This document shows positions 23,001 through 51,900 of a stretch of DNA of 64,000 nt, in pieces. Numbering within the stretch: position 1 is the stretch's first letter; every line of letters starts with the position of its first letter. The notes under the pieces are model-generated. The model saw nothing but the letters and a program-made list of their open reading frames with translations, did no database searches and was not told where the DNA came from. The position numbers were made by a program, and so were the translations under genes. Origin of the DNA: Mytilus trossulus (lineage: Eukaryota). The stretch lies in the NCBI RefSeq assembly GCF_036588685.1, contig NC_086377.1, positions 5,084,001 through 5,148,000 on the forward strand, written 5' to 3'.

Positions 23001-26000
23001 GTAGGTCGATTAAGTAGTCAAACACACCTTCCACATATGTGTGTTCTATACTTACAAACTCTATACTCCCTTGATGTGCCTCACCATATCTTTGTGTGTT
23101 CTATACTTACAAACTCTATACTCCCTTGATGTGCCTCACCATATCATTGTGTGTTCTATACTTACAAACTCTATACTCCCTTGATGTGCCTCACCATATC
23201 TTTTTGTGTTCTATACTTACAAACTCTATACTCCCTTGATGTGCCTCACCATATCTTTGTGTGTTCTATACTTACAAATTCTATACTCCCTGGATGTGCC
23301 TCACAATATCTTTGTGTGATCTATACTTACAAACTCTATACTCCCTTGATGTGCCTCACCATATCTTTGTGTGTTCTATACTTACAAATTCTATACTCCC
23401 TGGATGTGCCTCACAATATCTTTGTGTGATCTATACTTACAAACTCTATACTCCCTTGATGTGCCTCACCATATCTTTGTGTGTTCTATACCTACAAACT
23501 CTATACTCCCTTGATGTGCCTCACCATATCTCTGTGTGTTCTATACTTACAAACTCTACTCCATTGATGTGCCCCACCATATCTTTGTGTGTTCTATACT
23601 TACAAACTCTATACTCCCTTGATGTGCCTCACCATATCTTTGTGTGTTCTATACTTACAAACTCTATACTCCCTTGATGTGCCTCACCATATCTTTGTGT
23701 GTTCTATACTTACAAATTCTATACTCATTTGATGTGCCTCACCATATCTTTGTGTGTTCTATACTTACAAATACTATACTCCCTGGATGTGCCTCACAAT
23801 ACCTTTGTGTGATCTATACTTACAAACTCTATACTCCCTTGATGTGCCTCACCATATCTTTGTGTGTTCTATACTTACAAACTCTATACTCCCTTCATGT
23901 GCCTCGCCATATCTTTGTGTGTTCTATAATTACAAATTCTATTCTCCCTTGATGTGCCTCACCATATCTTTGTGTGTTCTATACTTACAAACTCTATACT
24001 CCCTTGATGTGCCTCACCATATCTTTGTGTGTTTTATACTTACAAATTCTATACTCCCTGGATGTGCCTCACCATATCCATGTAAACACAGTATCTCTGT
24101 TCGATTCTTGGACTTATTAATGCTGATACTAAACACTTTTTTAGGTCGTAATGGACCGTGAACATCTGATACATAAGGTGGTTTGTATTCTGTGGCTAAA
24201 AGTCTGCCATTGTCTACCTGTACAGAATTAAACATAAATTTATAGGGGAAAACAGGTTTTTGTAGGTACAACATTGAAACTAAACAAAATAGACAGTTAT
24301 ATGCAGTTTTTAAAGTTTAAAGCAGAATAACATATTGAAATTATTACAAGAATAATAAAGAGACATTTTCATAATTTCAATTCTTTTATTTTTAAACATG
24401 TAAATCATGTAAATTGAATATTTTACTTTTGTCATAAATCAGGTTGTTTGTTTTTTCCTTTGAATTATTTCATATTTTGATATGACTAGCTTGGTCATTA
24501 ATATCTGAATATGCAGTAGGTTTTGATCATTGGGGAAGGCTGTACATTAGCCTGTTATTGCATAAATCAACATCATTTGTTAGATAGTTGTCTTACAGCC
24601 AATTACAGGGAATCATGTGACATCTCAAGAAGAACTGGTTGATTTGCATTATGAGGTTATCTGAAGAAGTTACTCTTTATCATGAAACATACATAGCAGT
24701 CAAAAGCCACATTCAAATAATAAAACACTTAATATCTTAGCTAGAAAGTTACCAAACAAAGAAGATTTAACTAAAACCATACTTTAATTTGCATCAATCC
24801 ACCATAGGGCCTCATGTTTCTTTTCCACAACCCAAGACATCTGCCATATTTGTGAAGAACTGTAAATCAAATACACACATTTTGTTAGTTTTACATATCA
24901 GCTGTGTAGAACAGTAAATTGGTAACACACATTTGTTAGTTTACTCTGCTAGAGTGCTTGAGTTCATCAAGTGTTTGAGGGCGTAGTTAGTGATTCTCAA
25001 TTGCTGTTTTCTGTATATATGAACACATGACTACACTAGATAGAGTTAAGATGCCTTCACTGCAGTGCTTTGTGTACATTTCTGTTTAGCTTTTTTGTTT
25101 TGCTTTTTTGTTTTGATTGTCACCATGTAAATTTCTTCTGTTTCATCAATATTTTTGAAGAATGACATATTTCCACTTTTTCAATATTTCAGTAAGAGCA
25201 GGCCTGAGGAGTAGCTGCGGAACCATAGCTCTTACATGTAGGTCCTTTTGCTATTTTTTGACAATTTGCGGACCATAAAAAGGTATGTCATATCCTAGAA
25301 AAATATCTAATATCGACTAACCAATACAAATACAAGCTTTGCATTGATTATAAACAATAAATTTTGGGAAAATAAGTGCCACCTGAACCTGAGTCGCAAT
25401 TCCGAACGTTTTGAAATAGGAAAAATCCGTAGCTCTAAGATCGGCAAATAGTAAAAAAATAGCATAAGGACCTAAGAGCTACGGTTCCGTAGCTAGAGCA
25501 GGAGATGTCTGGAATTTTGTTTAACTTTGAATAGCTTGATTTTAATCTTCTTAATTATTTTTTCAGATTTGAATATCAGTTCACTGATGTCTCTTCAGTA
25601 TAAATTTCCAGTTTTTTGAAAAAAAATCTTTAAAATCTTAAAACTTACCAATGTATGTCACTGACCTTTTGTATAAATAACATAGTATGTTGTGTCCCAT
25701 TCATCCACTTTAATATCACAAACTGTAAAAAAATAACATCAACTTATTTACTTCTGTATATATTTCATTTCGTATAAAAAAGATTTTTGGTATGATTGCA
25801 AATGAGACAACATTTCACAAGAGACCTAATAACACACAAATTAAGAACTAAGGGTCACTGTACATGCTGTACAGCCTTAAACTATGAGTAAATGCCATAC
25901 CGTAAATTCAGCTATAAAAAGCCCTAAATGACAAATGTAGAAATGATTTGGGTGAAAACAACTTGACTTTGTTTAATTGTTAAATAATCAATGAAATCAA

Positions 26001-28920: not shown

Positions 28921-31900
28921 TACGGAAGCCGATAAGGGCCATTCAAAAAAAAAAATTATGTCGTAATTACGACATAGCATGTCGTAATTTCGACATAACA
29001 TGTCGTTATTACGACATCGCTATGTCGTAATTTCGACATAACATGTCGTTACAACGACATCGCTATGTCGTAATTTCGACATATCATGTCGTAATAACGA
29101 CATCACTAAGTCGTTATAACGACATCGCTATGTCGTAATAACGACATCGCTATATATAAAACAATATGTATTATGATTGCCCAGAGACTAAATGACACAG
29201 ATAATATTAACAACTATACGTCATCATAATGCCCCCTATAATTAGAAAAGCCCCCGCAAAGTCAGCTATAAAAGAGGGAGGAAAGATACCAGAGGGAGAG
29301 TCCCCGAAATGCTGTGTGGCAGACAGTGTTATTATTCAATTATTAGCTCCCTTGGTAAAACTCAAAATTTCATATTTAATGCATTTTATTGTTAAATAAT
29401 TTACATGAAGCTTAATAAGTACATATTTGTTAATTGCATAGCTTTTGCTATTTGAATTCATTGGTTAAAGATATTTATTTATATTGTAAAGTTTAATATT
29501 TGCATCGTCGCAAAATCTTTGGATACCTTCTTAGAATACCGTCAGTGAGAAAGTTATATATTTTACAAAAAAACTGAGGTGAATTAATGAACATTAATTA
29601 AACGGCTGTATAGACAGTTGTATGCGAGCCTTACTTGGCAGCTAACCATCCCATCTCCCTCAAAATAAGGGTATACTGCCTGGTTTCTTGTAATGAGGGT
29701 GAATTAAAGTATCAATTGCTCTAATGCTACTTTCAAATGTTGGGCACGATATTCCTTACAACACGTTTCACTTAAAATGCGACGTCGAAGAGGGTCTTTG
29801 ACTTCGATTAATTTTTGCAAGTTTTATTCGGTTTTTTATATTGTTGGTTGATTCTTGTTCTGTTCGTTTTGTGATGTCATTTTATAAAAAAATTACCTCG
29901 AGTTGTGGAAATCGATAAAATAATGTTTACCCTTTAAATTATTTCAACTTAAAATGCAGTACTGTAGGACGGAAAGATGGGACGGAAGTACATGTATACG
30001 GTTTTCATAATTTATTTTTATCATAGGATGTTTAACTTTCAAGTTGCACATCATCTGTCATTGTAAAATTTCTATATCTTAATTTATCCCCAATACAAAT
30101 ATATCTGACACTCTGCAAGTAAATCGAACATTTTTACCCTTGGTTAAATTTGAATAGAATTGTATTTTCCCTGACACATAAGTTGTCGAAATACACCCCT
30201 TCAATTACTTGAACCTTGGCTTGAGATTTATTTTCCCAAGTCATCTTCAGATATATACATTTTAAAATATAGTAATCTACTCCTGGGTCGTCCGCGTAAA
30301 CGGCAAACAAAAATATAATCCCGGTTTGTTTTTATAATTCGATGAAACGGTTTTCGTTGCTGTTTGGGATTCGTCTTTCAATTACCTCCATTTCATGCAC
30401 AAGTTTACATTGATGAAAAGTTCCGGCTTCGCTAGTACAGGAATTACTTTCATCACGAAATAGCAGGACAAATCGCGAAGTAAAACATTCCGTTAACTGG
30501 TATTAAGTGTTTTGATATTGGTGATTGCACCTAACTGAAGTGACGACTTTAAATGATCTATTTCGGAGTACTTCCGTAACATAAATTTCAATTTATTTTA
30601 TAAAATGGAATTTCCCCCCCCCCCCCCCCCCCCCCTGTTCCAAATTCTTTTAAATAAATCGTCAAAAGCTATACAATTAATAAAAATTGCAAAATTTAAC
30701 CTGTGTCAAACCTATTTCCCCGGGCGCCGGGAGTCTTTAGCAACATGCACTATTTTTTTTTCGGCAGCAATCATTAACATCTTTCTCCAAATTTCATAAC
30801 ACGATTTGTTTTAATTACCGTAAACATTTAATTGATACTTTAGCACATTTAACGTCGGAAATTAGCGTCTTTAGGATTTTAGACGTTTTCAGACATTTGG
30901 AAAAATTGGCTACCGTTTTGTAATGTATGGAAGCATTTTATTCCTTTAAGACTCAAATATGTAGTTAATAAGGAAAGAATCTTGGCATTTTTTACTCTTC
31001 GTATATCTAACTTTTGTTTTGATCAATTATAAAAAAAAAAATACGCCTTAACTGCTTTGAGGCAAATATTTGTACTTTTGTTAGATATTATTATTGTCTT
31101 ACTATTTTTATTCATTTTCTACTATAATATGCAGTCGAGTCAAATGAAATTTGGTAAAATAACGGTTTTAACGCCACAAAGAACCGACATATGTCGTTGT
31201 TCCTGTCAAAAATCAAGAAGATCACAGAATAAGAAATAGGATCACTATACATAACAGTTAAAACAGTTTTTCATAAATGTAACGTTGGATGGGGACATCC
31301 GTTTTTTTTCACATAGCTTTCTTTTTTTAATCCTCAAATACACTAAATATTAATTAGGAGATGATCAAGAGCTATAAAAACATAATTCAAAACATATATT
31401 GAATTTGTTTTAATATTGGTTCGTATTTTCTAACATTTTTATTATGTTTTGCGGATGAAATTTCGAAGATTCTGTTTTAAATCCTAGGGGTTGTAAGAAC
31501 ATCGCGCGTGCCCAACGTTTGAAAGTAGAAATAGAGCTATCTATACTTCAATACCCCCTTATACGAAGAAGCCATGCAGTTTGCGCTTATTTAAAGGGAG
31601 ATGGAAAGCTTGGCTTGACTTGGTTGTACAATTTCAGTCCTCTAATAATTCCACATTTTATTCTTACTGCATAGCTGTTCTACGACCGGTAGCTTGATAA
31701 TCTAAACGACTTTGTCTGACTGTACAGCCCTAACACTATGGGCCATGTTAATTGATATTGGTATATATAACATATATAAGTTTCTCACTGAAGGTATCCA
31801 AAGAAGGTAACCAAAGATTTTGCGACGATGCAAATATTAAACTTTACAATATAAATAAATTATCTTTAACCAATGAACTCAAATAGCAAAAGCTATGCAA

Positions 31901-32341
31901 TTAACAAATATTTACTTATTAAGCTTCATGTAAATTATCTAACAATATAATACATTAAATATGAAATTTTGAGTTTTACCAAGGGAGCTAATAATTGAAT
32001 AATAACACTGTCTGCCACACAGCATTTCGGGGACTCTCCCTCTGGTAGCTTTCCTTTTATAGCTGACCATGCGGGGACTTTTATAATTATCGGGGACATT
32101 ATGATGACGTATAATTGTTAAATTCTTTGTCATTTAGTCTCTTGCAAATCATAATACATATTCTTTTAAATATAGCGATGTCGTTATTACGACATAATAT
32201 GTCGAAGTTACGACATAGCAATGTCGTTGTAACGACATGTTATGTCGAAATTACGACATAGCGATGTCGTAATAACGACATGTTATGTCGAAATTACGAC
32301 ATAATTTTATTTTTTTTGAATGGCCCTTATCGGCTTCCGTA
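28921..32341. mobile_element. 3.4-kb non-autonomous DNA transposon with ~600-bp TIRs, IS3EU-like
   Basis: Ends tacggaagccgataagggccattc / gaatggcccttatcggcttccgta; 6-bp TSD AAAAAG (28915-28920, 32342-32347); empty site in copy 1 near 6670-6677; no transposase ORF. Confidence 0.85.
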
Positions 32342-32569
32342 AAAAAGCGTTCGGACTCGAACTATTTAAAAAAAAATATGCATTTTCGTCAGTATAATAA
32401 TGATTACATAGATTATTACTACACGCAATCAAACTAACTTTACATTGCAGTATTCCTACCATAATAATTAAGAGTGCATTTCTTTCTAATCAAAATTTTG
32501 TGAACGTTGTTTTGCGTTTTTACTCGTTTGCTAAACGCTACAAAAGCAGAAACAAATACATCTTTTAAT

Positions 32570-33182
32570 AAATGTTTTGATCATTTCTTTTTAACCCAAA
32601 CGATGCAAACGGCTAAGCGCGCACATATATTGATAATTTCTTTCTAACACAAACGATGCAAACGGCTAAGCGCGCAGATGTTTTGATCATTTCTTTCTAA
32701 CACAAACGATGCAAACGGCTAAGCGCGCAGATATTTTGATCATTTCTTTCTAACACAAACGATGCAAACGGCTAAGCGCGCACATGTTTTGAATCGTTTG
32801 ATTTTTTTTTAAACACAAACGATGCAAACGGCTAAGCGCGCACATGTTTTGATCATTTCTTTCTAACATAAACGATGCAAACGGCTAAGCGCGCACATGT
32901 TTTGATCATTTATTTTTAACACAAACGATGCAAACGGCTAAGCGTGCACATGTTTTGATCATTTCTTTCCAAGACATACGATGCAAACCGATAAGCGTGC
33001 ACATGTTTTGATCATTTATTTTTAACACAAACGATGCAAACGGCTAAGCGTGCACATGTTTTGATCATTTCTTTCCAAGACATACGATGCAAACCGATAA
33101 GCGTGCACATGTTTTGATCATTTCTTTCCAACACAAACGATGCAAACGGCTAAGCGTGCACATGTTTTGATAATTTCTTTCA
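32570..33182. repeat. 53-bp tandem repeat (~11 units)
   Basis: Same unit as 6900-7897. Confidence 0.95.
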
Positions 33183-34625
33183 AGTATTGTGACAGTTTGT
33201 ATTATTTTCGTTTTTATTTATTTTATTAAAAAAGTTTGAATTTTGAAGTTTATAGGTGTCAGTCGATCCCGGCCTGCCTCATCATCGGCAACAAAGCCAG
33301 GCATTGTACACGACTAGTTCCCCCACAAAATGTAAGATTCCAGACTCGGCTCTCACAGATGTAGTTCATATTTCGAGAGGCCGAGAGAAAAGAGCAACAA
33401 GAAGAACAAACTACAGTACAGAAATAACACCTTCTATTTTTTTGTTATTTATATAATACAAGCATACGTTTGCAAAGTTTACATAAACTTTGACAAACGA
33501 TGCAAACGATAAAAAATGCGTCTGCAGTGTGTCGTTTGTTAAACGATGTATTTGTTTCTACTTTTGTAGCGTTTAGAAAGCAACAACAAACGCGACACAA
33601 CGTTTTCAAAATTTTGGTTAGAAAGATATGAGACCTGTATTTCATATGTATGAAAAGGTGTAGCCTATGATTAAGATTATTACTTACAGTGTTTTGGGAT
33701 TTTTGCTTATACTGTTGATAACAATAAAATTAACGGTACCAATTTTCCTGCACCAGATGCGCATTTCGACAATACATGTCTATTTAGTGATGCTCGTGGT
33801 CGAAATATTTGAAATCCAAAGCTTAAATAAAAGATAACCACGGGGACCGAGAACACAGTTATTTCGTATTGCATTTCTTTTTGATAATAAATTCAAATAA
33901 AAAAAAACAAACCATCGAAATTGCACTATCTCAAAAAGAACTTCAGAGTGTAGTGTACTACTATTTGGAAATATAAAATCAAAGTTATAGAAAGGTCTAC
34001 CAGCTCTAACTCAAAATACTGACAATTCTGTGTTAACGGGTCTAAAATTTATTTTGAAATATTCAGACATACTAATTTGACCAAATCACTACTTGAAAGA
34101 AAGATTCAGCACCCAATTAAAAAAAATGTAATTTCATAATATTAATATTTCATGCATAAAAAAATAAAGTTGGAAAGTGTTTGAAAATAATATACAAGAT
34201 ATACACTGTTTTCACTAGGGACTAAGTGACGATATATGTGTCCTTGTGGTAACTCTCTGTATCATTGTTATACGATGATAACGGCTGTACACATATTTTG
34301 ACTATTCTATTAATTGTGTCTGTTTAGTTAACACATCAATGTAAATATAACGGAATTTAATGAGATTGTCATCAAAGTGAGAGGGTTAGCGCTATAAAAC
34401 CAGGTTTAATTCACCACTTTTTACATTTGAAAATGCCTGTACCATTTCAGGAATATGACAGTTCTTGTCCATTCGTTTTTATGCGTTTTGTTATTTGATT
34501 TTGCCATGTGATTATGGACTTTCCGAATTGATTTTCATCTAAGTTCAGTATTTTTGTGATTTTACTTTTTTCTGTTCCAATAACTATACTGTGTTATTAT
34601 CATGCCCATCAATAATAAATATATG

Positions 34626-35861
34626 TTAATGAATTTTGAATATAGATAAACACGAATATCCTACATGAATATAAATATCAGTAACAGCATGTATATCTAT
34701 GGTATCACGCAAGCTTAAAGAAACAACGGCTGAACCTGTACCGGTATGATGATTTTCGATTTGGTCACCAGAAAAGCGTGGCACTATACGCACATAAACT
34801 AAAGTGTTTTTGTTTTTCCTGATTTGATATTCTGCATCAGATAAATGGGTCATTATGCTAGCAATGATCAGGTATAGTCCAGGTTTCTCACATGTAAACT
34901 TTCCATTGGTTTGTAAGGTGGATAACGTATTGATTCCGTATGATGATCTGATGTTAGGAAATCTGATCACTGAATTGTTGTTATAGCGGTCACCAGTAGC
35001 GCACGCAGTAACGGCAACTGTAAAAGAGAAAATAAGATACATATAGCTAACAAATAGTATTTAAATATAGTAATGTGATAATGACCTGTAATCTTGTTTT
35101 TTTTTTAGGAATAATTCAACAGTATGTAATAATGCTGTATTTTGATTGGACGAGAGACCAGTTTCCCCCAGTAATTTCTATAAATTGAGAATTTCTTTTC
35201 TCTGCCGGTGTATCTGTCATTAAGAAATTTGAAGTTTGAATATTAAGACTACTGCCAGCAGCCGGTTGGATATTAAATCGTGTGAATATCGAAAAACGAA
35301 AATCGAACTTGCCGCTTACTTCACATGGCTGCATGCTTCTATTTGAAAATAAATCACAGACTTATCAAAAAACATTATGAACATATCAATTTCGTGAGTC
35401 TAACGCTCATTCAAAAAGAAGTCTTAATTAACTTATCATAATAATTATCTACCTTGCTCACTTTCCTTTGTCTGTTTATCTTCCAAGACCATTATGTCAT
35501 TTTTAATTCTATTTAACATTGTCATGGTTATCTTAGACGAATAATTTCTGTAGTAAGAACAACAATTTTCGAACTGTGTAGATTTTGATTGAACTGTATG
35601 TAGCTCTGAACGCAATATTTCAAAGTCCTTCAGAATGATAGGTATTTTAGATGTAATATTGGTAAGTTTTTTCACTTCCATTTCAAGTTGTCCAATATTT
35701 TGTATAATTTGTTTTTGTTCTTTTCTTTCCTCTATGATGATATCAAAGAGCGCATTGTAACGGCTATTTGTTATTTCACTATTTAAGGAGCCAGGCGTTG
35801 TCAGTTCAAAAAGAAACCCGAATATTGTAGGAAGAAGAAACAGCCAAATTACTCCCACCAT
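34626..35861 (-). CDS. Secreted C1q-domain-containing protein (C1qDC), 2 exons, 266 aa
   Basis: Exon 1 35453-35861 (signal peptide and coiled-coil, phase-1 GTAGAT donor). Exon 2 34626-35017 (gC1q: VIRFPNI..GKFTCEKPGLY..HTGTGSAVVSL..SCLSIFKI). Confidence 0.9.
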
Positions 35862-36297
35862 AATTTATATTTTTTTCACATGAAGTCGAACGGTGTCGGA
35901 GAAGCTTTTGGTACTTAAAACATCTACGATGTTTGAATGTTATCTATAAGTACCCACCTTTTGGCAAAACACCCAAATTGCATGGAGCTTATATAATGTG
36001 TTGATAAAATAAACTCTTCAACATGTTCAAATATAGATATTTGACTTCATCAAAAGACACGTGCATTTAATCATCTTTAATAGTGAACAAGGCAGGTATA
36101 CCATAAATAAAAACAACCAACATTTTTCATAGCAAACGACGTGAATTAGAACTGAAAACACTACAATGTTAAAAATTGTAAAAATTAAAACATGTTAAAT
36201 GGCAGACAATGACTTGCAATTGATATGACTTATTAACGACTAAAATGAAAACGGGGAATAGGTCAAGGAGACACAACCCGTCCAAAGAGATGATAAC

Positions 36298-36499
36298 TGA
36301 AGTACCTCAGGGTCATTGGTGGTGCTCCACATTGGAGGCAGATCCGGAAGACGAGAGAGCCTCGTTTCGGATCTGCCGGCAGTCGAAAACCTAGAAGCAG
36401 AAGCCAAAGCACGCTGATTCTAGCCGACCCAGAGAATAATTAGATAACCGTCTAACTGTACTTGCAAGATAGCCAGGGTAAGTTTTGAGAAAGCTTACA
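36298..36499 (+). repeat. 5' LTR (202 bp)
   Basis: Identical to 45801-46002 except base 3 (TGA vs TGT). Confidence 0.97.
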
Positions 36500-36500
36500 T

Positions 36501-36514
36501 TGGCGCTGCGAGCA
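36501..36514 (+). promoter_or_regulatory. Primer-binding site, probably tRNA-Ser
   Basis: TGGCGCTGCGAGCA, 1 nt after the 5' LTR; complementary to a tRNA 3' end ...TGCTCGCAGCG-CCA resembling tRNA-Ser(CGA/TGA). Confidence 0.75.
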
Positions 36515-37185
36515 TTCGTTTTCGAACAAATTCACTCGGGGAGTTGAATTCTACATCGAAATTGCAAATTTCAAGGGGCCAAAACAGCACCTCCATTTTG
36601 TTTTTAGGGATCCCTGACAGGTCACCTATTTTCAGTTTTCGCTAACCATAGCTTTGCTAGGTTAGTTTTATCGGGAGGGAAAAGTTAAAGCACCGGGAAG
36701 GGAACCTTGTGTGGCTAAGTTTCAGTCACCGTTTGTTATTTTTGAGGGATTTTTTCATACTTGGCCGTTTGCGGAGCCCTTGTAGGAACAAGTGTGAACC
36801 CCTTACTCGTTCTGCAAAACCCTTGTAGGGAATTTTGTAAACCCCAATCCAGTTCCGCCGCGTATTGCACTCAATTGACCTACGCAGCTCAACTTCCATT
36901 TGCAACCATAATTTGCAAATCTTCCGGTTGTAAACAGAAAGAAGAAATTGTAAGTGTCAAATTAAAGCAAAAAAACACATTGCACATACACCTGCCATTG
37001 TATATACACTCCTCTGGGGTCAACTTATAAGCTTGATCCCCAGTTAAAAAAAGTTGTTATATTAAAACCATACAAAACAGTCAAATATTATAAATACCCC
37101 TTTCCAGTGGATACCCCTGCCAAATCCCTAAACTAAACCTAAATTGTTTATTGTTTAATTATTGTGTTCCCATTCAAGTGTGACC

Positions 37186-38916
37186 ATGGCTAGAGTCCAC
37201 ATAAACTCTGCCACTTTTGAGGAATTGTTATCAATTCCAGGGGTAGGGGCTAAAATTGCCGCAAAAATTTGGGAATTGAGGGAGGATAAAGGAATTCTGG
37301 AGTTGGAGGACCTACGGGAGGTTCCTTATATGAGAATAACGGAGGCAGCTCTAGAATCTATGGATTTTAGTACCTCCCTGCCACCCAACAGGGGGTCTAA
37401 TAAATTTTGCAAAGAGGAGATAGGGCATCAAGAGAAGGTGCAAAGGATTGATAGCCTCATACAGGCCAGGGGTAGGGGGCAAACAGAGTATCCCAGTCAA
37501 TCAGTAGAAACACCCAGAGCCAGGGAGTCCGTGTCCACATCTCCATCCCAACACATCAATTTCCAAGATGGTGGGGAACTTAACCGGGGTTTCAGGGAAG
37601 ACATGGGGACCCACCAGGACCGATGGGACAGGCCCATGGGTGCTTATGGGGGTCCAAGAGATTACAAGTATGAAGGGGAAACACCTCGGTCTAGATATAA
37701 CAATGCCGGAGATACAGGAAGGGGAAGAGGGGGTTTTCAAAACCAGTTTATTGATAATGAGGGTCCAAGGCTCAGAGATGCCCAGCCGGAGAGCGAGGCT
37801 CCGGCATCAAGGCACGCCAGTAGCATGGGGTACCCCACAGGGTCAGGGGAACCCAGACGGGGATATGGGGACCAGAGAAGCTCTCGTCGGGATGCATATG
37901 ACCACCAGGGGAACATGGGAGGGTCAGATAACCAAAGACAGAGGGGGTCTATGGGGGTTAGACCTCCCATCCTACAAAAGAGCTTAAAGTATGATGGGAA
38001 AACTAATTGGCAGGCTTTCTATGCCAAATTTTCCCGATTATGCCAGGTTAGTGGGTGGTCTTCAGGGGAGTGCAAGGATCAATTGTGCTGGTCCCTTGAT
38101 GGGAAACCCAGTGAGTTTTATGCCTTGCTCGTGGAAAGAAGGCATGACTTGTCTTATGAAGACTTGGTGAGTAAGTTGGCCAAACGATTTGGGTTCAATG
38201 AGTTGCCAGAAACAGCCCAAGTCCAATTTAACATTGCCAGGCAGGGTGGGGATGAAACCTTAGAGGACTGGGCCGACAGGGTCCAATCACTCGCCACAAA
38301 AGCCTTCCGTCACCTTCCTGAAGATCACATGTACCAGCAAGCCATCATGAGATTGTGTCAGGGGGCCTCAGATAAGGAGAGGGGAATGTTGGCCTCCAAT
38401 GCCAAACCAAAGAGTATTGAGGAGGCAGTGGATAAAATTCGTATGCACCAACATAACCACCAGGCCATATATGACCGTAGTGCCAGAAAAGAAGTAAAAA
38501 GTGTAAGTCCTGAGATCCGAAGCCGGGGTGGGGATCACTATACTGTCTGTTCCACATCAGGACCAGTCCCCAATAATGCTCCTTCCAAAATTATCCCCAA
38601 AGAACATTCTCCTAAAGATGTCCAGGATTTGAAGGACCAATTTCATGCCTTCAAGGGGGAGGTAAGTGGGACTCTGGGCAATATCATGTCTGAAATACAA
38701 AAGCTATCTTTTGCTGTCCGCAATAATGCTAGGCCCCCATCCAGAAGCCCCTCTCCTCGTGCCGGTGGTTGTTTCCATTGCGGGGAGGCAGGCCACTTTA
38801 AAAGGGAATGCCCAAAGTTTCAAAGGTCTAATTCTCCTCGACCTGGGGGAAAAAAGGTAACCTTCCAGGACAACAAGGGTCCGTTAAACTCCAACGGGTC
38901 GACTCAAGAGGTCTGA
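37186..38916 (+). CDS. gag: Gag with N-terminal helix-hairpin-helix, capsid-like domain and CCHC zinc knuckle
   Basis: ACCATGG Kozak start; VHINSATFEELLSIPGVGAKIAAKIWELRE (ComEA-type HhH); YDGKTNWQAF..RQGGDETLEDW; CFHCGEAGHFKREC at 38770-38811. Confidence 0.92.
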   Translation: MARVHINSATFEELLSIPGVGAKIAAKIWELREDKGILELEDLREVPYMRITEAALESMDFSTSLPPNRGSNKFCKEEIGHQEKVQRIDSLIQARGRGQTEYPSQSVETPRARESVSTSPSQHINFQDGGELNRGFREDMGTHQDRWDRPMGAYGGPRDYKYEGETPRSRYNNAGDTGRGRGGFQNQFIDNEGPRLRDAQPESEAPASRHASSMGYPTGSGEPRRGYGDQRSSRRDAYDHQGNMGGSDNQRQRGSMGVRPPILQKSLKYDGKTNWQAFYAKFSRLCQVSGWSSGECKDQLCWSLDGKPSEFYALLVERRHDLSYEDLVSKLAKRFGFNELPETAQVQFNIARQGGDETLEDWADRVQSLATKAFRHLPEDHMYQQAIMRLCQGASDKERGMLASNAKPKSIEEAVDKIRMHQHNHQAIYDRSARKEVKSVSPEIRSRGGDHYTVCSTSGPVPNNAPSKIIPKEHSPKDVQDLKDQFHAFKGEVSGTLGNIMSEIQKLSFAVRNNARPPSRSPSPRAGGCFHCGEAGHFKRECPKFQRSNSPRPGGKKVTFQDNKGPLNSNGSTQEV

Positions 38917-38951
38917 GTCTGGCCCCTAAACCACGGAGTATAAAGGACCTC
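38883..38951 (+). promoter_or_regulatory. Putative -1 ribosomal frameshift signal (slippery heptamer plus H-type pseudoknot)
   Basis: G TTA AAC, 6-nt spacer, stem GGGTCGACTCA/TGAGTCTGGCCC, loop GAGGTC pairing with GACCTC (38946-38951). Pol is in the -1 frame and open from the heptamer. Confidence 0.75.
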
Positions 38952-41900
38952 ATGATAAGCCATAACCCACCTTACTTAACTAAGGAGGGTACTATCAGTC
39001 AAATAGAAATGATACCGGAGGAAATAATTTCCCCACTTGTGCAGGAATGCCTAGAGGAACCGTCCCATTCCGAGGAACTAGGGGTCATTAAATCACTACC
39101 TCCTGTCCCACCAGACCCCACGTCCACCAAGGAGAAAGACATAGCTCAAACAGCAAAACTAATAGAGGGGCCTAAGAGGGAACCCATCAATCTCATAGTC
39201 CCGGACATGTCTGAATCGGGGTCACAAGACGAAGAGTCGGGGGAGGAAGGGGAACAAACACTGTGTGATAGCTCAAACAGTGATGGGGAGGGGGACTTAG
39301 TGACAGAGGGGGAAAAAGAAATGATAACCATAAGTCAGTTAACGGGGGGTACTATGTATCGGGTGCCTGTGGTAGTCCAGGGTCACAGGGTCGACGCTGT
39401 TGTAGACACAGCAGCTCAGGTTACCCTAATATCCGAGGAAACGTACAAAAGTTTAAAGGAGCTCGAGCCACCTCCTATTCTTAAGGAAGTGGTGATGAAC
39501 ACTGCAGGAAAGGGCCTACAAATGAATGGGTTTGTTGCTGGGCCTTTTTATATTAAGTTGGGGAACCAAGATTTCACATGGGACATATATGTAGCACCAA
39601 TTGGAGATCAGATGCTTTTGGGAATAGACTTCTTAAGGAAGCAGGGCATATCGCTCGACTTGCATAGGAATCAATTGTCCATTCACGGGGAGGTCATCCA
39701 AATGTCATGGGGTCAGGCCAGTTCATTGCCCCAAACAACTGAGGTACGGGCAGGAAAGAATCACACAGTCCCAGCCAATTCAGTTCAAAGAGTCATGGGA
39801 GTGTTAGCCAAACCCATGGGTCGAGAATACATCATTGAGGCAAAGGCTGAGGGCTGTTTGCTCATACCCAGAACCTTACATGATGTAGGTCAAGATCCGG
39901 TGTTGTGTCTGATAAACCTCACCGATAGTCCCCTGGTGATCTCAAAAGGGGATCTACTAGCCCAAGCTCAGGAAGTCGACATGGGGGAACCCCCGGGCCC
40001 TAAAGTGTGCAAGATGGGGGTTGCTGGAGAGGTTAAGGAAAAATTGTTGCCCCAACACTTACAAGAGATGTTCACCAGGTCCTGTGAGGATTTGTCTAAG
40101 GGGGAGGAGGAGACCTTGTGTTCCCTGTTACAGGAATTTCAGGATGTCTTTGCTAGCAGTGACTTAGATCTGGGCCATTTCACGGCCTTGGAACATGGCA
40201 TTGACACCGGGAATCACCCCCCCCCCCCCATTAAACAGCGAATGCGGCGCACCCCCTTAGGTTTTGCCCAAGAAGAGGAGGCTCATTTGGAAAAAAATTT
40301 ACAATCTGGGGTAATTCAGCCATCCGTATCGGAGTGGGCTTCTGCCCCAGTCCTCATACGGAAAAGGGATGGTAGCGTTAGGTGGTGCGTGGACTATAGG
40401 AGGGTCAATGGGGCCTGTTCCCGCCAAATCTTTGCACTCCCCTTAGAAGAAGAGTGCCTAGACACCCTAGCAGGAAATGTGTGGTACTCCAAGCTGGATG
40501 CCAATTCGGCGTATTGGCAAGTCAAAATAAAAGAGGATGACCGGCCAAAAACGGCTTTTATCACCAAATATGGGCTGTTTGAGTTTGCACGCATGGCTTT
40601 CGGGCTATGCAATGCCCCAGCCACATACGCCCGGGTCATAAGCCTTGTACTCCGGGGGTTAATATGGCGGGTAGTGTTGGCTTTTTTGGATGACATATTA
40701 GTCTTGGGAAGGGATTTTGGGGACCACTTGGCAAACCTGAGGGTAGTATTTGAAAGGTTTAGGACGTACGGGCTCAAACTAAAACCCAGGAAGTGTGATT
40801 TATTTAGGAAAAAGGAAGAATTTTTAGGGAGGGTGGTAGGTCCCGAAGGGATGGAAATTGGGCCGGGATATGTAAAAGATGTAAAAAACTGGCCAAAACC
40901 CCGGAACTCAAAGGAAGTAGAACGGTTTTTGGGATTCGCAAACTATCACAGGGCCTTTATAAAAGACTATACTAATATAGCCTTACCCCTTCAAGCCTTA
41001 ACCGGAAAACGCCCCTATTTCTGGGGAAACGAGCAACAACAGTCTTTCGATAGACTCAGGGAAGCCATGGTGTCAGCCCCTGTTTTGTCATTACCCAATG
41101 CCACTGATCCCTTTATCTTAGACACGGATGCTTCCGACAAGGCTATTGGGGCAGAATTATTGCAGGTCCAGGGGGGACAGGAACGGGCCACGTCCTATGC
41201 TAGCTTTACCCTTACCCCAGAACAGCAGAAATATTGTACTACCCGAAAGGAGCTGTTAGCCATTGTCAGGTTCACCAGGCTATTCAGACATTACTTGCTT
41301 GGGCGGAGGTTTACGGTTCGAACAGATCATAGTAGTTGGTTAACGAATTTCAAGGAACCCCAGGGACAATTAGCCCGGTGGCTGGAAGAAATCAGTCAGT
41401 TTGATATGGAAATCAAACACCGGCCAGGGGCTAAACATCCTAATGCAGACGCTTTGTCTCGATTGCCTCAATATGGACCGTGTCCCGAGTTTCAAGTAGA
41501 CAAGGTTCTAGCCAATTTGCCCTGTGGGGGATGTACCTACTGTGCCCGAGCTCAACAAAATTGGGGACAGTTCACGGAAAATGTTGATGATACCATACCC
41601 TTGGCAAAGAGACCCTATGGTAGTACACAACCCAAAGACACACGAGAACCAGTGGTGCAAATATCCCGGGTGTCTGTGTCAAAGAGGGGGGACGAATTAG
41701 CCATATGGTCAAAGGGGGAGGGTGACATCTGGGTGCAGGAAGTAGGAGGGGACCTAGGGGTCAACTTGGGCTACAGTCAGGAAGAGTTAAAAGAAAACCA
41801 AAGTAAGGACCCAGACTTAAAATGGGTGGTTCAATGGAGGAAAACAAAAGGGGAACCCTCTGAGGAGGAAATCTTCCTCAGCGGTCCCGCCTCCAAGTAC

Positions 41901-43292
41901 TACTGGTTAAATCGGGAATTATTTGTCCTTAGTGGGGATGGTGTACTGTACAGGAAGGGGGTGAAAGGAGAGGCAGATAGGGTGGTCATTCCCCAAGTAT
42001 CAAGGAAGGAACTCATGGAGTTGTGTCACGATATTCCTGCAGCGGGCCACCAAGGGGGGGACCGAACCTACCAAAGGATCAAGCCAAGGTATTATTGGAG
42101 AGGGATGAAGAAAGAGATTGAACAGTATGTAGCAAGTTGTGCTTTGTGTAGCCAAAACAAAAAGGCTACTCGCCCAAACCGTCACCCTATGGTGAAACAT
42201 CACGCCGGGGCACCAATGGAAAGGGTTCATCTAGATTTTGTGGGGCCCCTCCCAAAAACAGAAAGGGGAAATGAACATATCCTCATGATGATCGATCAGT
42301 TTACCAAATGGGTGGAATGTGTCCCTCTCCCCGCCTAGGGCGCAGAACTAACAGCCCGCACGGCAGTGAATGAGTTCTTCTCCCGTTTCGGGAGTCCCTT
42401 TCAGGTATTCACTGATCAGGGGAGGAACTTTGAATCCCATCTGTTTAAAGCCATGTGTGACCTGCTTCAAATACACAAAAGTAGAACCACCCCATACCGC
42501 CCCTCCTCCAATGGTCAAGTAGAGCGTTGCAATCGAACGCTGATGGCTTCAGTGCGGTGCTTTGTGGGAAAAAATCAAAAGTCCTGGGATCTATTCCTTC
42601 CGCAATTAGCTGGTGCGTTCCGTGCTTCAGTCAGTAGAAGCACCGGGTTTACTCCTAATCATCTCATGTTGGGCAGAGAAGTCAATCAACCTGCTGAGTT
42701 GATGTTCAGGGGGCCACAGGGGGAGGAAATTCAGGATAGAGAAAAATATGTTTCAGACTTAGAGGAGGCCATCCAAGGGGCACACGAGCTGGCCAGGGCC
42801 AACCTAAAAACGGCACAAGAACGCCTCAAAAGGGATTACGATCTCAAGGTGGTAGTCAAAAGGTTTAAGGTGGGGGATCTAGTGTACCAATTGGACACGG
42901 CCACCATCAAGGGAAAATGTCGGAAACTGACACCATCTTGGAAGGGCCCTGGGGTGGTGGTGGAAAGTCTCACTCCATATCTTTACAGGGTCAAAATGAA
43001 AACAGCAATGGTGGTGGCCCATCATGACCGGATTAAGTTGTGTAAAGATAGGGAGGTCCCAAATTGGTGTAAAAAACTACAAGCCCAAGTTTTAAGTAGA
43101 AATTGGAAGGAAATAGAGGAGTTGGAACCCAAGGGAAAAAGGGGAAAAAACATTTATTGCTCATACCGGGGACCAGAGGATGGGGGTCTCATGATTAGAT
43201 GTGACGAGTGCAGGGAATGGTTCCATGGACGATGCGTGGACATCACTCCTGAGGAGGCGGACAGAATGGACGCTTATCAGTGTCCTGGATGT
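38883..43292 (+). CDS. pol: Pol polyprotein (protease, RT, RNase H, integrase, C-terminal PHD); interrupted by an in-frame TAG at 42336-42338
   Basis: DTAA protease (39405), FLDD RT (40683), DTDAS..TDH RNase H, HHCC and D-D-E integrase, WKGP motif, PHD at 43155-43292. The frame resumes directly after the stop. Confidence 0.93.
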
Positions 43293-43355
43293 TCGGTCTC
43301 CACAGAGGTGCACGTGTCCAGGATCTCCCTGCACTCTAAGGTAAATCTATTTCAG

Positions 43356-45394
43356 ATGAATAACAACACCAACAGTATTGACAAAACAGGGGATGGAAGC
43401 CAGCCACCTTCTCCAGAGCAGGCCTCCGTCACAGAGGTGACGGAGGAACTGGTAGTGTGTGTGTCGGAGGAGGAGCTGAGGCAGCTGGACCCTGAGGTCC
43501 AGGGGAGCCCAGGGGCTGCCTTAGAGGTATGTGGGGGGTCCGAAGGGGGGTCTGAAGGGGTTGAGGGGAAGGGGGAGGTGAAGAAGACCAAGAAGAAGAG
43601 GAAGTCGAGGAGCAACAAGAAGAGCAGAGCTGCCAAGAAGAAGGCCACGGCAGCAACCTCACCTCTCCTGACAACCTCACCTCAGGGGGTGGCTCAGGGT
43701 CAGGAGGTGTGTCGGGGCCAGTCTGGCTCCCCAGCTTCCGGTGAGGTGGCAACACCTCACTATGGAGTTCAGGGTGAAGCAGTTGGTACTGGACTGTCTT
43801 GTCCAGTTTCTGGCTGTGAAACCCGGGGACCAGGCCTGGAAGGGCACATTCTCGCGGAGCACGTGGCCGAGGTGTTCCGTGACCTGGTAGTCTCCGACCC
43901 AGGGTTAGCCCGGGTGCGTCTCACATCGCTGAGCACACTCTTCAGGGCCCTGGGGGGGGCTGCTGTTGGGGACCCCATCCATTGGGTGATAAGCCAGCTG
44001 GAGACTGTGGGGCTGACTCCAGAGGACTTGACCGCTGAGTGGGGAGCCATGGCAGCAGTGTGCCAATTGGCGCGATGGGAGGTTCCGCGAACCTTTACAC
44101 TGTCACCAATAAACTCACCTGCAGTCCTTATGCATTGGAGGGCGCAGGTGGAGTTGATGGCTTTACTACAGGAACATCAGCGTCAGGCCTTTCTGGGGAA
44201 GGTTAACCTTAGCTCCAGTGAGCCGTCCCAGGCGAGCTCTTCTAGTGAGCAGGGGAGTCCACCAGCCAAGGCAGGAGTTTTTAGCCGGCTGGGGGCTCCG
44301 GTTTGCACACAGGGGACTCCCAGGCCCATGGGGCAGGTTGGGGCGTTCAGTTCCACGGGGCCCTCTCCCAGGTCCATTCCCTCCCTCATGTCCCTCCCCA
44401 CCCGGCCTGTACCCTCCCTCATGTCTCTTCCACGTCCTGGTCCCAGCAGGTCACTTCCAAGTCTAGGGTCAAGAGGCTCATCCTCATCTGTGGGGGCACA
44501 GGGATCAAAGTACCCGGGGAATCCCTCAGGGAGTAGGGGAGTGGAGTCTCAATTGTGCAGGGATCTTCCGGAGGCATTTGACAGCCATATGCATCTGGAT
44601 AGGTCCCTGACCAAGATGGGGCTGCCTCCTCGGACATCTCTGGGTGATTTCCTAAGGGTGCGGTTGGACCCTGCCCCTGTGGATCCAGTCAAGCTGGCTG
44701 GAGGGGTTGCAGTTTTCTGCAACCCGAAGACTTGGCCCAGTGTGCCTTTGAGGCTGGAGCCAGGGTGGGTTGGAGCAGTGGGAATCCACCCAAAGAGTGC
44801 TGGGCAGTTTGAGGACGCCGTTTAGCACCGGTTCCACCAACTGGTGTCGCACCCAAGTGTGTCCGCCCTTGGAGAGGTGGGAGTGGATTACACTGTGGAG
44901 GAAAAACTACACGCCCGGCAGATATCGACCTTGCGATGGGCACTCCAGTCCTGCCGCTTTGACCAGCCTGTGGTCTTGCACATTCGGGGTGGCAAACTGG
45001 ATAGGGTTCACGCCCGAGCCCATCGCGAGGTCTTAGAGGTTCTGAAGAGTGTGGTAGTCAATCCGCTGCAGTTAATTCATCTCCACTGTTTCCAGGGGGG
45101 ATTGCTCAGGTGCGGGAGTGGCAAGACTCATACCGCAACGCTTATTTTGGGTTTGGTATGGGTGTCAGGTCCTTTAACTCTGAGCAGAAGGAGGCCTTGA
45201 GGTCGGTGCCCCCATACAGGATTCTCTTGGAGAGTGATGCCCCTTACTTCCCCCCACCAAATGCACGGCATGGCCACCCTCATTAACTTTATGAGGTGGC
45301 AAAGGTGGTGGGGACAGTGAGGGCAGAATCACCGAGGGAAATTGTACGGGTGGCCCACCTCAATGGTAGCCGTCTGTACGGAGTTAACCCGTAG
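43356..45394 (+). pseudogene. tatD: Env-position ORF in frame with pol: basic NLS, C2H2-like finger, TatD-family nuclease domain (44571-45394); disrupted in this copy
   Basis: DSHMHL, AVGIHP, ALGEVGVDY, PVVLHIRG, HLHCF, YFGFG, RILLESDAPY, GHP..LYEVAKVV..NGSRLY. Lesions: TAG 44823, 1-bp loss in the G-run 45095-45100, TAA 45284. Confidence 0.88.
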
Positions 45395-45786
45395 GTGGGC
45401 AACTCCCAACATGTACATAGCAACAGAAAGGCCCGTTGGCCAGTTACAATTGTTAGAGAAATTAGTTATAGCCAGTTGGCTTCCAATAAATGAATTTACA
45501 GCCCGTTGGCTCCTAAATTAACCATAGTTATAGCCAGTTGGCTCTTAGTAATGAATTTGAGGGCCCGTTGGCCAAAAGGGGAGGATGTATATATGCGTAA
45601 TCCTGGGGTGTGTGTCATGGGGATCCCGAGGGTGAGGGGAATGGGGGGTGACCAACTGTAGTTCAGTCTCCATAGGGCATGGGTGGGGGCGGGTTTACTG
45701 TGTTTCTGATCCTGTTTTTGGTATATTCCCTACTGATTTCCCTAGCATGATCTTTTGTTTTTACCCGGGGGTTACTCCTTTTGTAC

Positions 45787-45800
45787 AAAGTTGGGGGGAG
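45787..45800 (+). promoter_or_regulatory. Polypurine tract
   Basis: aaagttggggggag immediately before the 3' LTR. Confidence 0.85.
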
Positions 45801-46002
45801 TGTAGTACCTCAGGGTCATTGGTGGTGCTCCACATTGGAGGCAGATCCGGAAGACGAGAGAGCCTCGTTTCGGATCTGCCGGCAGTCGAAAACCTAGAAG
45901 CAGAAGCCAAAGCACGCTGATTCTAGCCGACCCAGAGAATAATTAGATAACCGTCTAACTGTACTTGCAAGATAGCCAGGGTAAGTTTTGAGAAAGCTTA
46001 CA
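45801..46002 (+). repeat. 3' LTR (202 bp)
   Basis: TGTAGTACC...AAGCTTACA followed by the TAAC TSD. Confidence 0.97.
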
Positions 46003-46659
46003 TAACAGTCGTATAACATCAATGGGTGTTCAACGCAGCGAGAAAATCCTATATACTCAGCGGTTGGTATCAGCTTAATAAAACTGTGTACTTTTTCAAT
46101 GAAAACAGACGTCATACTAAACTTAAAACCATATAAATGAACTTAAATTACAATTCATACAAGAATATCAAAGACAAAAGGCTCCTGACCTGGACAGGTG
46201 CACAACGCTGTGGGGTTAAACAATTCTGTAAGATACCCTTTTTGATAGCAACAAGTGGTGCCTGTGTTAGGACTGGAACGGCGTGTGGTCACAACGACCT
46301 GATACCAGAAATGAGGTTGTAGAAATCTAAATACTATTATTCCGAAACAATATAGTAATGAAATTAAAACAATATAAAGAAATATGCACAGGCACTTGTT
46401 TATATCCATAGAAAGGTCGACTATCCATATAGATAGAAGTACACGTATGTGGCTAACGGAATTGATTTAAGGTCACGACCGTCTCCGCTTCGGACTCATT
46501 TTGTACCCTTTAAGTTAAAGCAAAAATCTGTACATTATATGAATCGAAAAATTGAATATTCACCTTCAACACAGTTCATATGGTTATGTTCATTTTAATT
46601 TGCAATGAAAGATGTAGATTTTGGTGTAAAAAAAATATTTTATAAACAATCTGTATATT

Positions 46660-48907: not shown

Positions 48908-51900
48908 TTAATCAATTTTGATGATAGACAAACACGAATATTTCCCATAAATGTAGCTATTGGTGACCACATGTATTTCTAAAATATCATGTCTATTCAA
49001 ATTGTCAACAGCTGATCCTGTCCCGGTATATTGTTGTTGAGGACCACTAGAATAGTCTGGTACTATACGGACGTTAACCAAAGCATTTCCATTTTTTCTT
49101 ATTTGATAAGCTGCATTAGGTGAATGGGAGGTTATGCTAGCAACGATGAGGTATAATCCAAACTGATCACATGTAAATTCTCCACGAGTTTTAAAAGGAA
49201 CTACACTAACGACTCCATGTGAGGTTTTGAAGTCCGGAAATTTAACTGCTCTATTATTGTAATTGTATCCACCATCAGTACACGCAGTCAAATAAACTGT
49301 AACAGAAAAAAAACTCAATACTACACAATCAGCAACAAATATAATTTATAGATCATAAATTGCTAAACTGACGATAACATAAATAAATGGTTCGCATATT
49401 AAGATTGAACGGACTTCTTTTGGTCGGAATTATTTGACACTAGTTATATAGAGACTTGTACAATCAAACTCAGGAGAGCAAAGACCATTCCAATCCGATT
49501 AAATAGATCTACGAAGAGATGATATATTTCCTTTGGCACCATCTTACGGTGTTTATATTTCACAACTAGTTCACTATTCCCGTGTCTGTTTTGACGTTTT
49601 GATTTTAACGAACGTATTCTATGTATTAATGGTAAATTATTAAGCCAGGGAATTCATTACCACAAATTACTCAAAACCTAAACTAAGTTATTCCATAGAT
49701 ACACAGATTTGGTATAGAAGTGTGGTTGTACCTGTAAAAACTTATTTCAAACGGGATAACACATCCTCATTTTTACGGAAATGTAGATGCATGATTTTTT
49801 TATTAGTTGTTAGTGGCTTTGAACTAGATGTTAGTAACTGCGAGAACTCTCAGATCATTACTTATTGTCTTTTTGTTGTTGGGATATACAAGTATCCGGC
49901 CACGTCTACTCTGTATTTTTGTTAGATGTATTTCTATTTGTATCTATCTAATGAGTTTTTTTCAACTGATTTTGATAGTTCGTTCTTATGTTGTACTGTT
50001 ACACCACTGTCCCAGGTTAGGGGAGGGTTGAGATCCCGCTAAAATGTTTAAACCCGCCACATCTGTATATATGTGCCTGTCCATAGTCAGGAGCCTGTAA
50101 TTCAGTGGTTGTCGTCGTGATGTGTTACAAATTGATTTTTCGTTAATTGTTTTTTACATAAATTAGGCCGTTAGTTTTCTCGTTTGAATTGTATTACATT
50201 TGTCATTTCGAAACCTTTTATAGCTGACTATATTTATGAGGTATCGGCTTTGCAAACTGTTGAATACCGTACGACGACCTATAGTTGTTAATTTCTGTGT
50301 CATTTGGTCTCTTGTGGAGAGTTGTTTCATTGGCAATCATACCACATCTTTTTTTTTTTTATATATATTAGCTCTATTCAAGTAAAAGTACTGGTGTATA
50401 TCTACAATAACGGATGAATTATGTTTACGGAAACAACCTATGTGTCTTTTGTCTTTATACAAATTATATTGCTCCATTGGTGTTTACATGAATATTGAAA
50501 TTGACCCCTTCTCAGAAATTAATTTGAAACATCATTAACACCACTATCACCATTACATGAATAAAACAAATTGTTTATTTTGATTTTATTAATACAAATA
50601 ATTGAAGGGTATACGAGGAGTATGTGGCATGGCATAAATTATTCTTAAACAATTGCATCCCAGTATCAAAATCATATGAAAAATATACTTTCATTAATTC
50701 TTAAAATAAACTGAAAATAAAGGTTAATTTCGAATTCAAAAAAAAATTTGTATACACAGACAGTCGTTTTCTCTTTTGATTAGTACAAATCTCAACTGTC
50801 AGCTGAGGAAAATTCATTTCATACCATACAGTTAAGGTTGTGCTCGTTATTAAAGACCGTGAATTAATCGTGATTTGTAATTAATCAAATATGTGTCCTC
50901 TGCTCTTTAATTGATTGTTCTTTGAATGGCGATTATACAACACCTCTTTATTTTCATAGCGTGATGGGGTTCATTATAACAATATACTAATTTGGAATGT
51001 TAATTTATGTATGTTTTTAGTGCTAAATAATTAAAAAAAGGGCTAAGGAAGAAATAAATAGATTCAAACCAAAAATATTAACGTGTATATTTTCATTAAA
51101 ATGTTCTTTAATTACAAAACTTATTAAACACACATATATTTTCATGAATACCAATGTCCTAAATTAGAAAAAAAATCACTTACTTCTTAAGAACAAAATA
51201 ATATGCATTATGTATGTAGGACTCGGATGTGCGATGGGGACACTGAATTATGATTGTCCGTTTGATCATGTGCGATGGTCTATTTGACGCATGATGACTA
51301 GTTTAAAATCGACAAAATTATGTGCAATTTTTATGAGATTGTATTTTGGTCATGTTGGTATCTATGTATGATTGTAAGTTTATAAGCCCCTTTAAAACTG
51401 TTCCGATGTTGAATATGCATAAAATATTTTCAACTCGAATTTAAAAATTAGCCATCCATCATTCGGATAATTTTTAAACGATTGTATGAACAGTGGCTTA
51501 TTTTTGTCCAAGCCAATTTACAAAGTACATTACAACGATACAGACATGAATGGTTATTCGATAACTATAAACCAGGACTGATTTAAATTGAAAGGGTAAC
51601 ATTCTCGATGATTAACTTAATAAACATGAAAAGCCGCTTCTAGGAAACAACTTGATCTCATCGTCGACATGTGAACATGTTGGTATGATACGGGTTATGT
51701 TATTCTCATATATCATGTATATTTTATGATTGTATAATACTAAACCGCTAACGGGAGGGATTGTGCTTGATTTTCATATGATGAAGACAAAATCTTTCTA
51801 TCAGTTTAATTGAGGTCTGGAGCTGGCATGTCAGTAACTTCTAGTAGTTCTTTGTTAATTTATGTATCATTGTCATTTTGCTAAGTTTCTTTTGTTACCT

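Follow-up and report, generated by a model that had tools for sequence, protein, structure and literature searches.

A PHD finger that is predicted to read methylated H3K4, and that selection has kept, defines by its place at the C-terminus of the integrase a broad branch of animal Gypsy retrotransposons. Our data directly show the domain and its position, the one branch that carries it, the conservation of its aromatic cage and its fold. As an overall explanation we favour, at a probability of roughly 0.55, a captured histone reader that would bind H3K4me2/me3 during integration and give the element a soft bias towards K4-methylated regions.

A Gypsy integrase that ends in a PHD finger

The window, i.e. 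the whole 64,000-nucleotide stretch of Mytilus trossulus DNA analysed here, contains a young 9.7-kb Gypsy LTR retrotransposon on the forward strand (36298–46002), framed by a 4-bp target-site duplication (left copy at 36294–36297, the same bases at 46003–46006 after the 3' LTR). The 202-bp 5' LTR (36298–36499) and the 3' LTR (45801–46002) are identical at 201 of 202 bases. The LTR pair, the duplication, a primer-binding site starting with TGG (36501–36518, in the same position in sibling copies), a polypurine tract (45793–45800), the pol order PR-RT-RH-IN and a GPY/F-type motif reading WKGP-G are those of a Ty3/Gypsy element. Its gag (37186–38916) encodes an N-terminal helix-hairpin-helix, a capsid-like region and a CCHC knuckle (Pfam HHH_3, E 4.2e-8; Retrotrans_gag; zf-CCHC); the HHH_3 domain at the start of Gag (37186–37330) is also present in PHD-less sister elements. 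The first part of pol (38832–42338) comprises protease, RT, RNase H, the integrase H2C2 region and the first catalytic motif, and pol continues (42339–43154) with the rest of the integrase core, the WKGP motif (42939–42950), the C-terminal domain and a linker (Pfam rve and Integrase_p58_C). A premature in-frame stop (42336–42338) separates the integrase's first catalytic motif from its second, at a position where the frame is open in a sibling copy, and because of this stop the window copy is unable to make an integrase–PHD protein. With this stop, a Tyr in its finger and an ORF3 broken by a stop (44823–44825) and a frame change near 45095, the window copy is dead.

[quoted passage not shown] It was also right that the second zinc ligand is a Tyr in this copy. 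The C4HC3 ligand set, incomplete in the window copy, is complete in its family, with Cys at ligand 2 in all seven closest genomic copies (L002–L008, 96–99% DNA identity); Phe or Trp stands there in three older copies.

The genome yielded 143 matches in a protein search, from which we examined eight copies of the window element's own family (A), six copies of four further families (B–E) and ten elements that matched the WKGP part only. All five families carry the PHD finger, and none of the ten elements matching only the WKGP part has one. Pol ends 6–20 residues past the last PHD cysteine in families B, C and D and 25 residues past it in E. In family A, rather than ending at the PHD finger, the frame runs on into ORF3 without a stop; this holds for all 10 copies whose stretch was read in frame, although two of them already meet a stop within the PHD and one, L006, meets a stop at the junction. 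The nearest named database protein (99% identical, labelled Mytilus galloprovincialis) reads through into ORF3 as well.

Several further features of these families deserve mention. With Pol and ORF3 in one frame across 43293–43355 of the window, family A may make a Pol–PHD–TatD fusion. In families B and C, Gag and Pol form one frame of 2,400–2,550 aa (L068–L073, L078) and the LTRs end in TA, not CA. Other PHD-like peptides, unrelated to integrase, lie near or among the genomic matches (L016/L020 on contig C5 at about 48.2275 Mb, opposite strand; L021–L025 on contig C1 at 54.47–54.49 Mb), one of them followed by a stop and one in a tandem array.

Conservation and reader class of the finger

A database protein search returned 427 matches, and finger statistics were taken from the 120 matches listed. 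Complete C4HC3 fingers are present in 75 of these 120; the remaining 45 are mostly truncated, frameshifted or altered in one ligand, and some are without a finger. Named hosts among the matches listed are Mytilus, Pecten, Mercenaria, Plakobranchus, Strongylocentrotus and Diadema, the fingers of the two urchin proteins (Strongylocentrotus and Diadema) being incomplete, and most matches are unnamed metagenome or assembly proteins. Public annotations label such integrase fragments 'COMPASS component SPP1'. Among the matches listed, the tail after the finger is at most 15 residues long in 70 of the 75 complete homologues.

The pattern used to find the finger left the cage, Asp and loop positions free. 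Nevertheless, Met and Trp of the cage are each present in 75 of the 75 complete fingers among the matches listed, and the position before the first Cys holds Tyr or Phe in 72 and His in three of them. In the same set, the residue after the third Cys is Asp in 64 and Glu in five of the 75 fingers; it aligns with an Asp of PHF2 and BPTF that we take to serve the Arg2 pocket there. A loop position, whose aromatic residue presumably forms a fourth cage wall, is occupied by Trp or Tyr in 40 of these 75 fingers, and 30 have Asp there. In a 54-row alignment that includes more distant members, Trp is found in 54 and Met in 52 rows while adjacent columns vary freely, and the WKGP–PHD regions of different families are only about 40–50% identical. 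It is the binding surface of the finger, and not just its fold, that selection has preserved.

According to the passages of PMC3241642 on reader classes, the aromatic cage of PHD fingers that read H3K4me3 contains an invariable Trp, which separates the K4 and R2 pockets, and an acidic Arg2 pocket is often present; fingers that read unmodified H3K4 are described there as having no aromatic cage. The fingers of the mussel elements and their homologues have both the cage with the invariable Trp and the acidic residue at the Arg2 site. The best of 50 sequence matches in the PDB were PHF2 (6.6e-14) and BPTF (1.8e-13), followed by PHF8, Spp1, KDM7A, CFP1 and DIDO. The fingers of PHF2/PHF8, BPTF, Spp1/CFP1 and DIDO share with the element PHD the C4HC3 fold, the cage of Tyr, Met and Trp, the acidic Arg2 site and 40–50% identity over 50 residues, but reside in host proteins; the comparison gives no single family as the host donor. 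An alignment-based structure model of the finger (pLDDT 88, pTM 0.50) superposes on the H3K4me3-bound fingers of BPTF and PHF2 at 1.1 and 0.9 Å, respectively, over about 50 residues. Prediction from the single sequence reached a pLDDT of 36, and a predicted complex with the unmodified H3 tail, computed without an alignment and with methylation outside the model, scored 0.19. The earlier view that the Y..M..W residues form the aromatic cage of an H3K4me3 reader thus finds support in sequence, in predicted fold and in the conservation of the cage residues on the surface throughout the clade, and we regard binding of the finger to H3K4me2/3 as likely.

One branch and its PHD-less sisters

In a tree built on RT, RNase H and integrase without the PHD region, seven PHD-bearing rows separate from eight PHD-less rows with a split support of 100/100. 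A tree of the integrase core sets 29 PHD-bearing rows, among them those of scallop, clam, sea slug and urchin, against seven PHD-less rows with an SH-aLRT value of 91. As both trees are unrooted and their rows were picked by likeness to the query, a single gain of the PHD finger is compatible with them, but not proven.

PHD-less sisters in the same genome share with the PHD families the helix-hairpin-helix Gag and the TatD-type ORF3. Their integrases end in a basic-Pro-aromatic motif in all eight cases, preceded by an acidic tail with 18–23% Asp/Glu in the seven measured. The PHD finger occupies the place of this acidic tail and end motif. What tail and motif do in the PHD-less elements (L223–L232) is a matter of speculation; they are possibly a nucleosome anchor.

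A TatD nuclease in the third open reading frame

ORF3 (43356–45394) has an acidic, low-complexity start, a C2H2-like finger (43800–43862) and, from about 44570, a TatD nuclease domain, which Pfam detects on two pieces of the broken window copy (TatD_DNase, E 1.5e-12 and 1.1e-7) and on the unbroken stretch of a sibling with E 8.2e-36; a PDB search also matched this assignment. Across families A, D and E and the PHD-less sisters, six of six full ORFs scanned give E values of 1e-36 to 1e-46. The motifs GExGxD, HxR, HCF and E(S/T)D are found in 12 of 12 sequences and HxH in 11 of 12, all of which we take to be motifs of the TatD nuclease. A C2H2-like finger together with a TatD nuclease with intact motifs occurs in ORF3 of L060, L075, L223, L226, L228 and L229. 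Families B and C have lost TatD and kept the upstream part of ORF3 (blastp E 1.5e-9 to 4.6e-5). TatD is thus present in the PHD-bearing families A, D and E and in the PHD-less sisters and missing in B and C, so that the two domains vary independently of each other. In the literature searched, there is no report of a TatD ORF3 in such elements.

Directly 5' of the ORF3 ATG, the window element has a pyrimidine-rich, AG-ending site resembling a splice acceptor (43340–43355), and such a site, with the AG at most 22 bases from the ATG, was seen in 12 of 12 families (scored by eye and without a chance model). A donor-like site in the LTR is present in three of the seven families examined (at 36478 in the window), and no pol stop codon precedes the acceptor-like site in family A. 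As sequence features, these sites suggest a spliced subgenomic RNA. Public contigs from four runs, presumed to be RNA, cover most of the element, and the joints listed for these contigs include none between the LTR donor and the ORF3 acceptor.

Insertion sites and the possible role of the finger

The explanation that we favour, a captured reader acting in integration, runs as follows. One Gypsy branch would have captured a host histone reader and kept it as the last domain of its integrase, where it would stand in for the acidic tail and basic end motif found in the PHD-less sisters. During integration the PHD finger would bind the tail of H3 with K4me2/me3, with Tyr/Phe, Met and Trp forming the methyl-lysine cage and the Asp beside the third Cys taking up Arg2, and would thereby hold the integration complex on K4-methylated nucleosomes. 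The most likely outcome would be a better engagement with open germline chromatin, i.e. a soft bias towards K4-methylated regions and not strict insertion at promoters. That the finger acts during integration is probable; whether this translates into a measurable bias of insertion sites is nearly an even call, leaning slightly towards no. The broadest version of this reading, in which an old branch of animal Gypsy elements with a wide distribution exchanged its integrase tail for an H3K4me3 reader and so integrates at K4-methylated germline chromatin, as an active-mark counterpart of the chromoviruses whose integrase itself reads the mark without a host adaptor, is tentative, with the odds rather against it.

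Evidence on insertion sites comes from LTR searches with the five PHD families and three control families, which yielded 110 PHD and 13 control flanks after partial or unclear LTR matches had been dropped; two flanks that belong to the same insertion do not count as independent observations. Median GC of the 110 PHD flanks was 0.322, against 0.329 for the background of the window (p 0.25); CpG observed/expected (o/e) was 0.79 against 0.805 (p 0.65), peak CpG was likewise in line with the background, and a comparison of promoter motifs with background gave p 0.053. Close to the insertion, in the first 250 bases, CpG o/e was nominally higher (0.86–0.89) than further out (0.74–0.79). Strong CpG depletion (o/e below 0.5) in eight of the 110 PHD flanks points to methylation of this DNA, and at such places one would not expect H3K4me3. 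Among 148 ORFs of at least 80 aa in PHD flanks, ten were Pfam-positive, with five transposon domains, three host exons (Ig, ankyrin and C2H2) and two unclear cases; 11 ORFs in the control flanks had no Pfam match. Insertions of PHD families thus adjoin RT, protease and Mutator sequences and an internal Ig exon, and 18 of all 123 flanks start in sequence common to another flank. Composition barely separates promoters from background in this genome, since a true histone promoter, taken as the 300-base stretch upstream of an H3 gene, scores like background (GC 0.38, CpG o/e 0.82). Of tethering to active promoters, which the initial annotation had proposed as a possibility, there is thus no signal in the GC, CpG, promoter-motif and Pfam proxies of the 110 flanks, in a test of low power that covers only insertions that survived selection.

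Other patterns did not hold up. With nine full-length controls, PHD and control flanks seemed to differ in CpG (p 0.03), but with all 13 this was gone (p 0.41). Targeting of tRNA genes was rejected, as there was no tRNA in the 123 flanks or the window, and so was a fixed target sequence, the duplications being varied and weakly NTAT-like. On contig C5, the interval 43–73 Mb (2.3% of the assembly) holds 14 of 76 PHD-family insertions, but clustering there was dismissed as an effect of the PHD finger (14/76 versus 1/25 insertions, p 0.11, for an interval chosen post hoc); several partial LTR matches in it share flanks, pointing to segmental duplication. Within the window, repeat pairs about 25.6 kb apart suggest local duplication as well, and there are 53-bp and 55-bp tandem arrays and a large inverted-repeat element (6848–7960, 22928–24215, 32519–33302; 28958–32324).

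Background-like flanks alongside strong conservation of the finger would also be accounted for if the PHD bound methyl-lysine without choosing the site, be it as an activity switch or a device for chromatin retention, by recognizing an H3-like motif of a non-histone host protein, or in a role after integration. The PHD finger of RAG2 is an activity switch or chromatin-retention module, and the PHF2 PHD, the best sequence match here, has been solved with a peptide of the non-histone protein VRK1 (according to PDB titles). However, the integrase C-terminus is the usual place of targeting modules, as the portion of PMC6673714 dealing with chromodomains indicates, and we consider this alternative rather improbable.

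Slightly less probable still, and unlikely overall, is strict promoter targeting, in which most insertions would lie within about 1–2 kb of active transcription starts and the element would act as a chromovirus of opposite polarity. The reader class of the PHD finger fits this idea, as does the slightly higher CpG o/e in the first 250 flanking bases, and a passage in PMC9940879 reports that a PHD-bearing Gypsy element of Chlamydomonas is intergenic 2.6 times above chance and often in UTRs. A gene with a C1q-type exon has its putative start codon (35861, minus strand) 436 bases from the window copy itself, but this is a single anecdotal case, set among a cluster of similar genes and dependent on a start codon that is inferred. 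C1q-domain-like sequences surround the insertion at 34626–35864 (minus strand) and 48908–49345 (minus strand), with repeats at 52595 and 54236. Against strict targeting stand the resemblance of the flanks to background and the insertions beside transposon sequences and the internal Ig exon and in shared repeats.

That the finger is a neutral passenger or a recently captured host exon without a role, as its broken state in the window copy and several older copies might suggest, is largely refuted by its retention across families that are about 40–50% identical in the WKGP–PHD region, its occurrence in hosts that, judged by their source names, include bivalves, a gastropod and sea urchins, and its invariant surface residues.

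To our knowledge, the choice of insertion sites by retroelements is understood for few systems only, and the self-encoded chromatin readers known to us so far mostly point to silent chromatin. If the favoured explanation is true, an integrase that comes with its own reader of H3K4me2/3 would follow the opposite strategy. This would matter for the origin of regulatory variation in the genomes of bivalves and echinoderms, and it would account for the 'COMPASS component SPP1' labels on integrase fragments. Because a single genome houses young sister families both with and without the PHD finger, the targeting question is directly testable, with the sisters, otherwise of the same layout, as a ready-made control.

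Relation to known systems

Precedents for single parts of this design exist. PHD fingers in retrotransposons are called widespread in a passage of PMC6673714, and PMC8557442 mentions them, in the text relevant here, in CR1 ORF1, in Chlamys elements and in other Chlamydomonas transposons. In the literature searched, which had Repbase reports, GyDB, subscription journals and supplements outside its scope, we found no PHD finger at the C-terminus of a metazoan Gypsy integrase; 'PHD' is absent from the main text of mollusc and annelid LTR surveys (PMC6238403, PMC8556966), and the accessible parts of 10.64898/2026.05.21.726589, PMC5563155 and PMC4255032 hold nothing relevant.

Gypsy-7a_cRei of Chlamydomonas is, like the mussel element, an LTR element with a PHD finger in its polyprotein; it has an intergenic bias, and the authors suggest targeted insertion (excerpts of PMC9940879). 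It differs in residing in a green alga and, to judge from a figure legend that lists the PHD after RNase H and before integrase, probably in the position of the finger, and the same excerpts neither give a reader class nor mention a TatD ORF3 (PMC9940879). In the DNA transposon Ginger1-9_HM, as described in part of PMC2836005, the PHD finger does lie C-terminal to a Gypsy-like integrase with a GPY/F motif; this is, however, a cut-and-paste transposon, in which the PHD comes with a Ulp1 protease and in only one of the 16 families tabulated. The third open reading frame of the mussel element recalls Juno and Vesta of bdelloid rotifers, which likewise have a non-env ORF3 nuclease, typically made from a spliced message; in the sections of PMC5408684 concerned, this ORF3 is a DEDDy exonuclease or GDSL esterase and not TatD, no chromodomain follows GPY/F, and the sole mention of PHD is in a reference. 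REM1 is reportedly another LTR element with a PHD finger in its polyprotein for which targeted insertion has been suggested.

CopiaMBD of arthropods is similar in principle, i.e. an animal LTR element with a captured host chromatin reader proposed to guide integration, yet it is a Copia element and reads methyl-CpG, unlike the PHD-bearing Gypsy elements of the mussel (as outlined in part of PMC6673714). Close in design are the chromoviruses, Ty3/Gypsy elements with a chromodomain at the C-terminus of their integrase (same source, in a passage citing Gao et al. 2008). The idea that the finger is a chromodomain analogue stands with respect to its position, which is where chromoviruses carry their chromodomain, but does not extend to membership, as no chromo family was found by Pfam on the integrase C-terminal ORF at E values up to 0.1; the element is an analogue of the chromoviruses in design, not one of them. 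In place of a chromodomain, its integrase carries a PHD finger whose predicted ligand is not a heterochromatin mark but the active mark H3K4me2/3.
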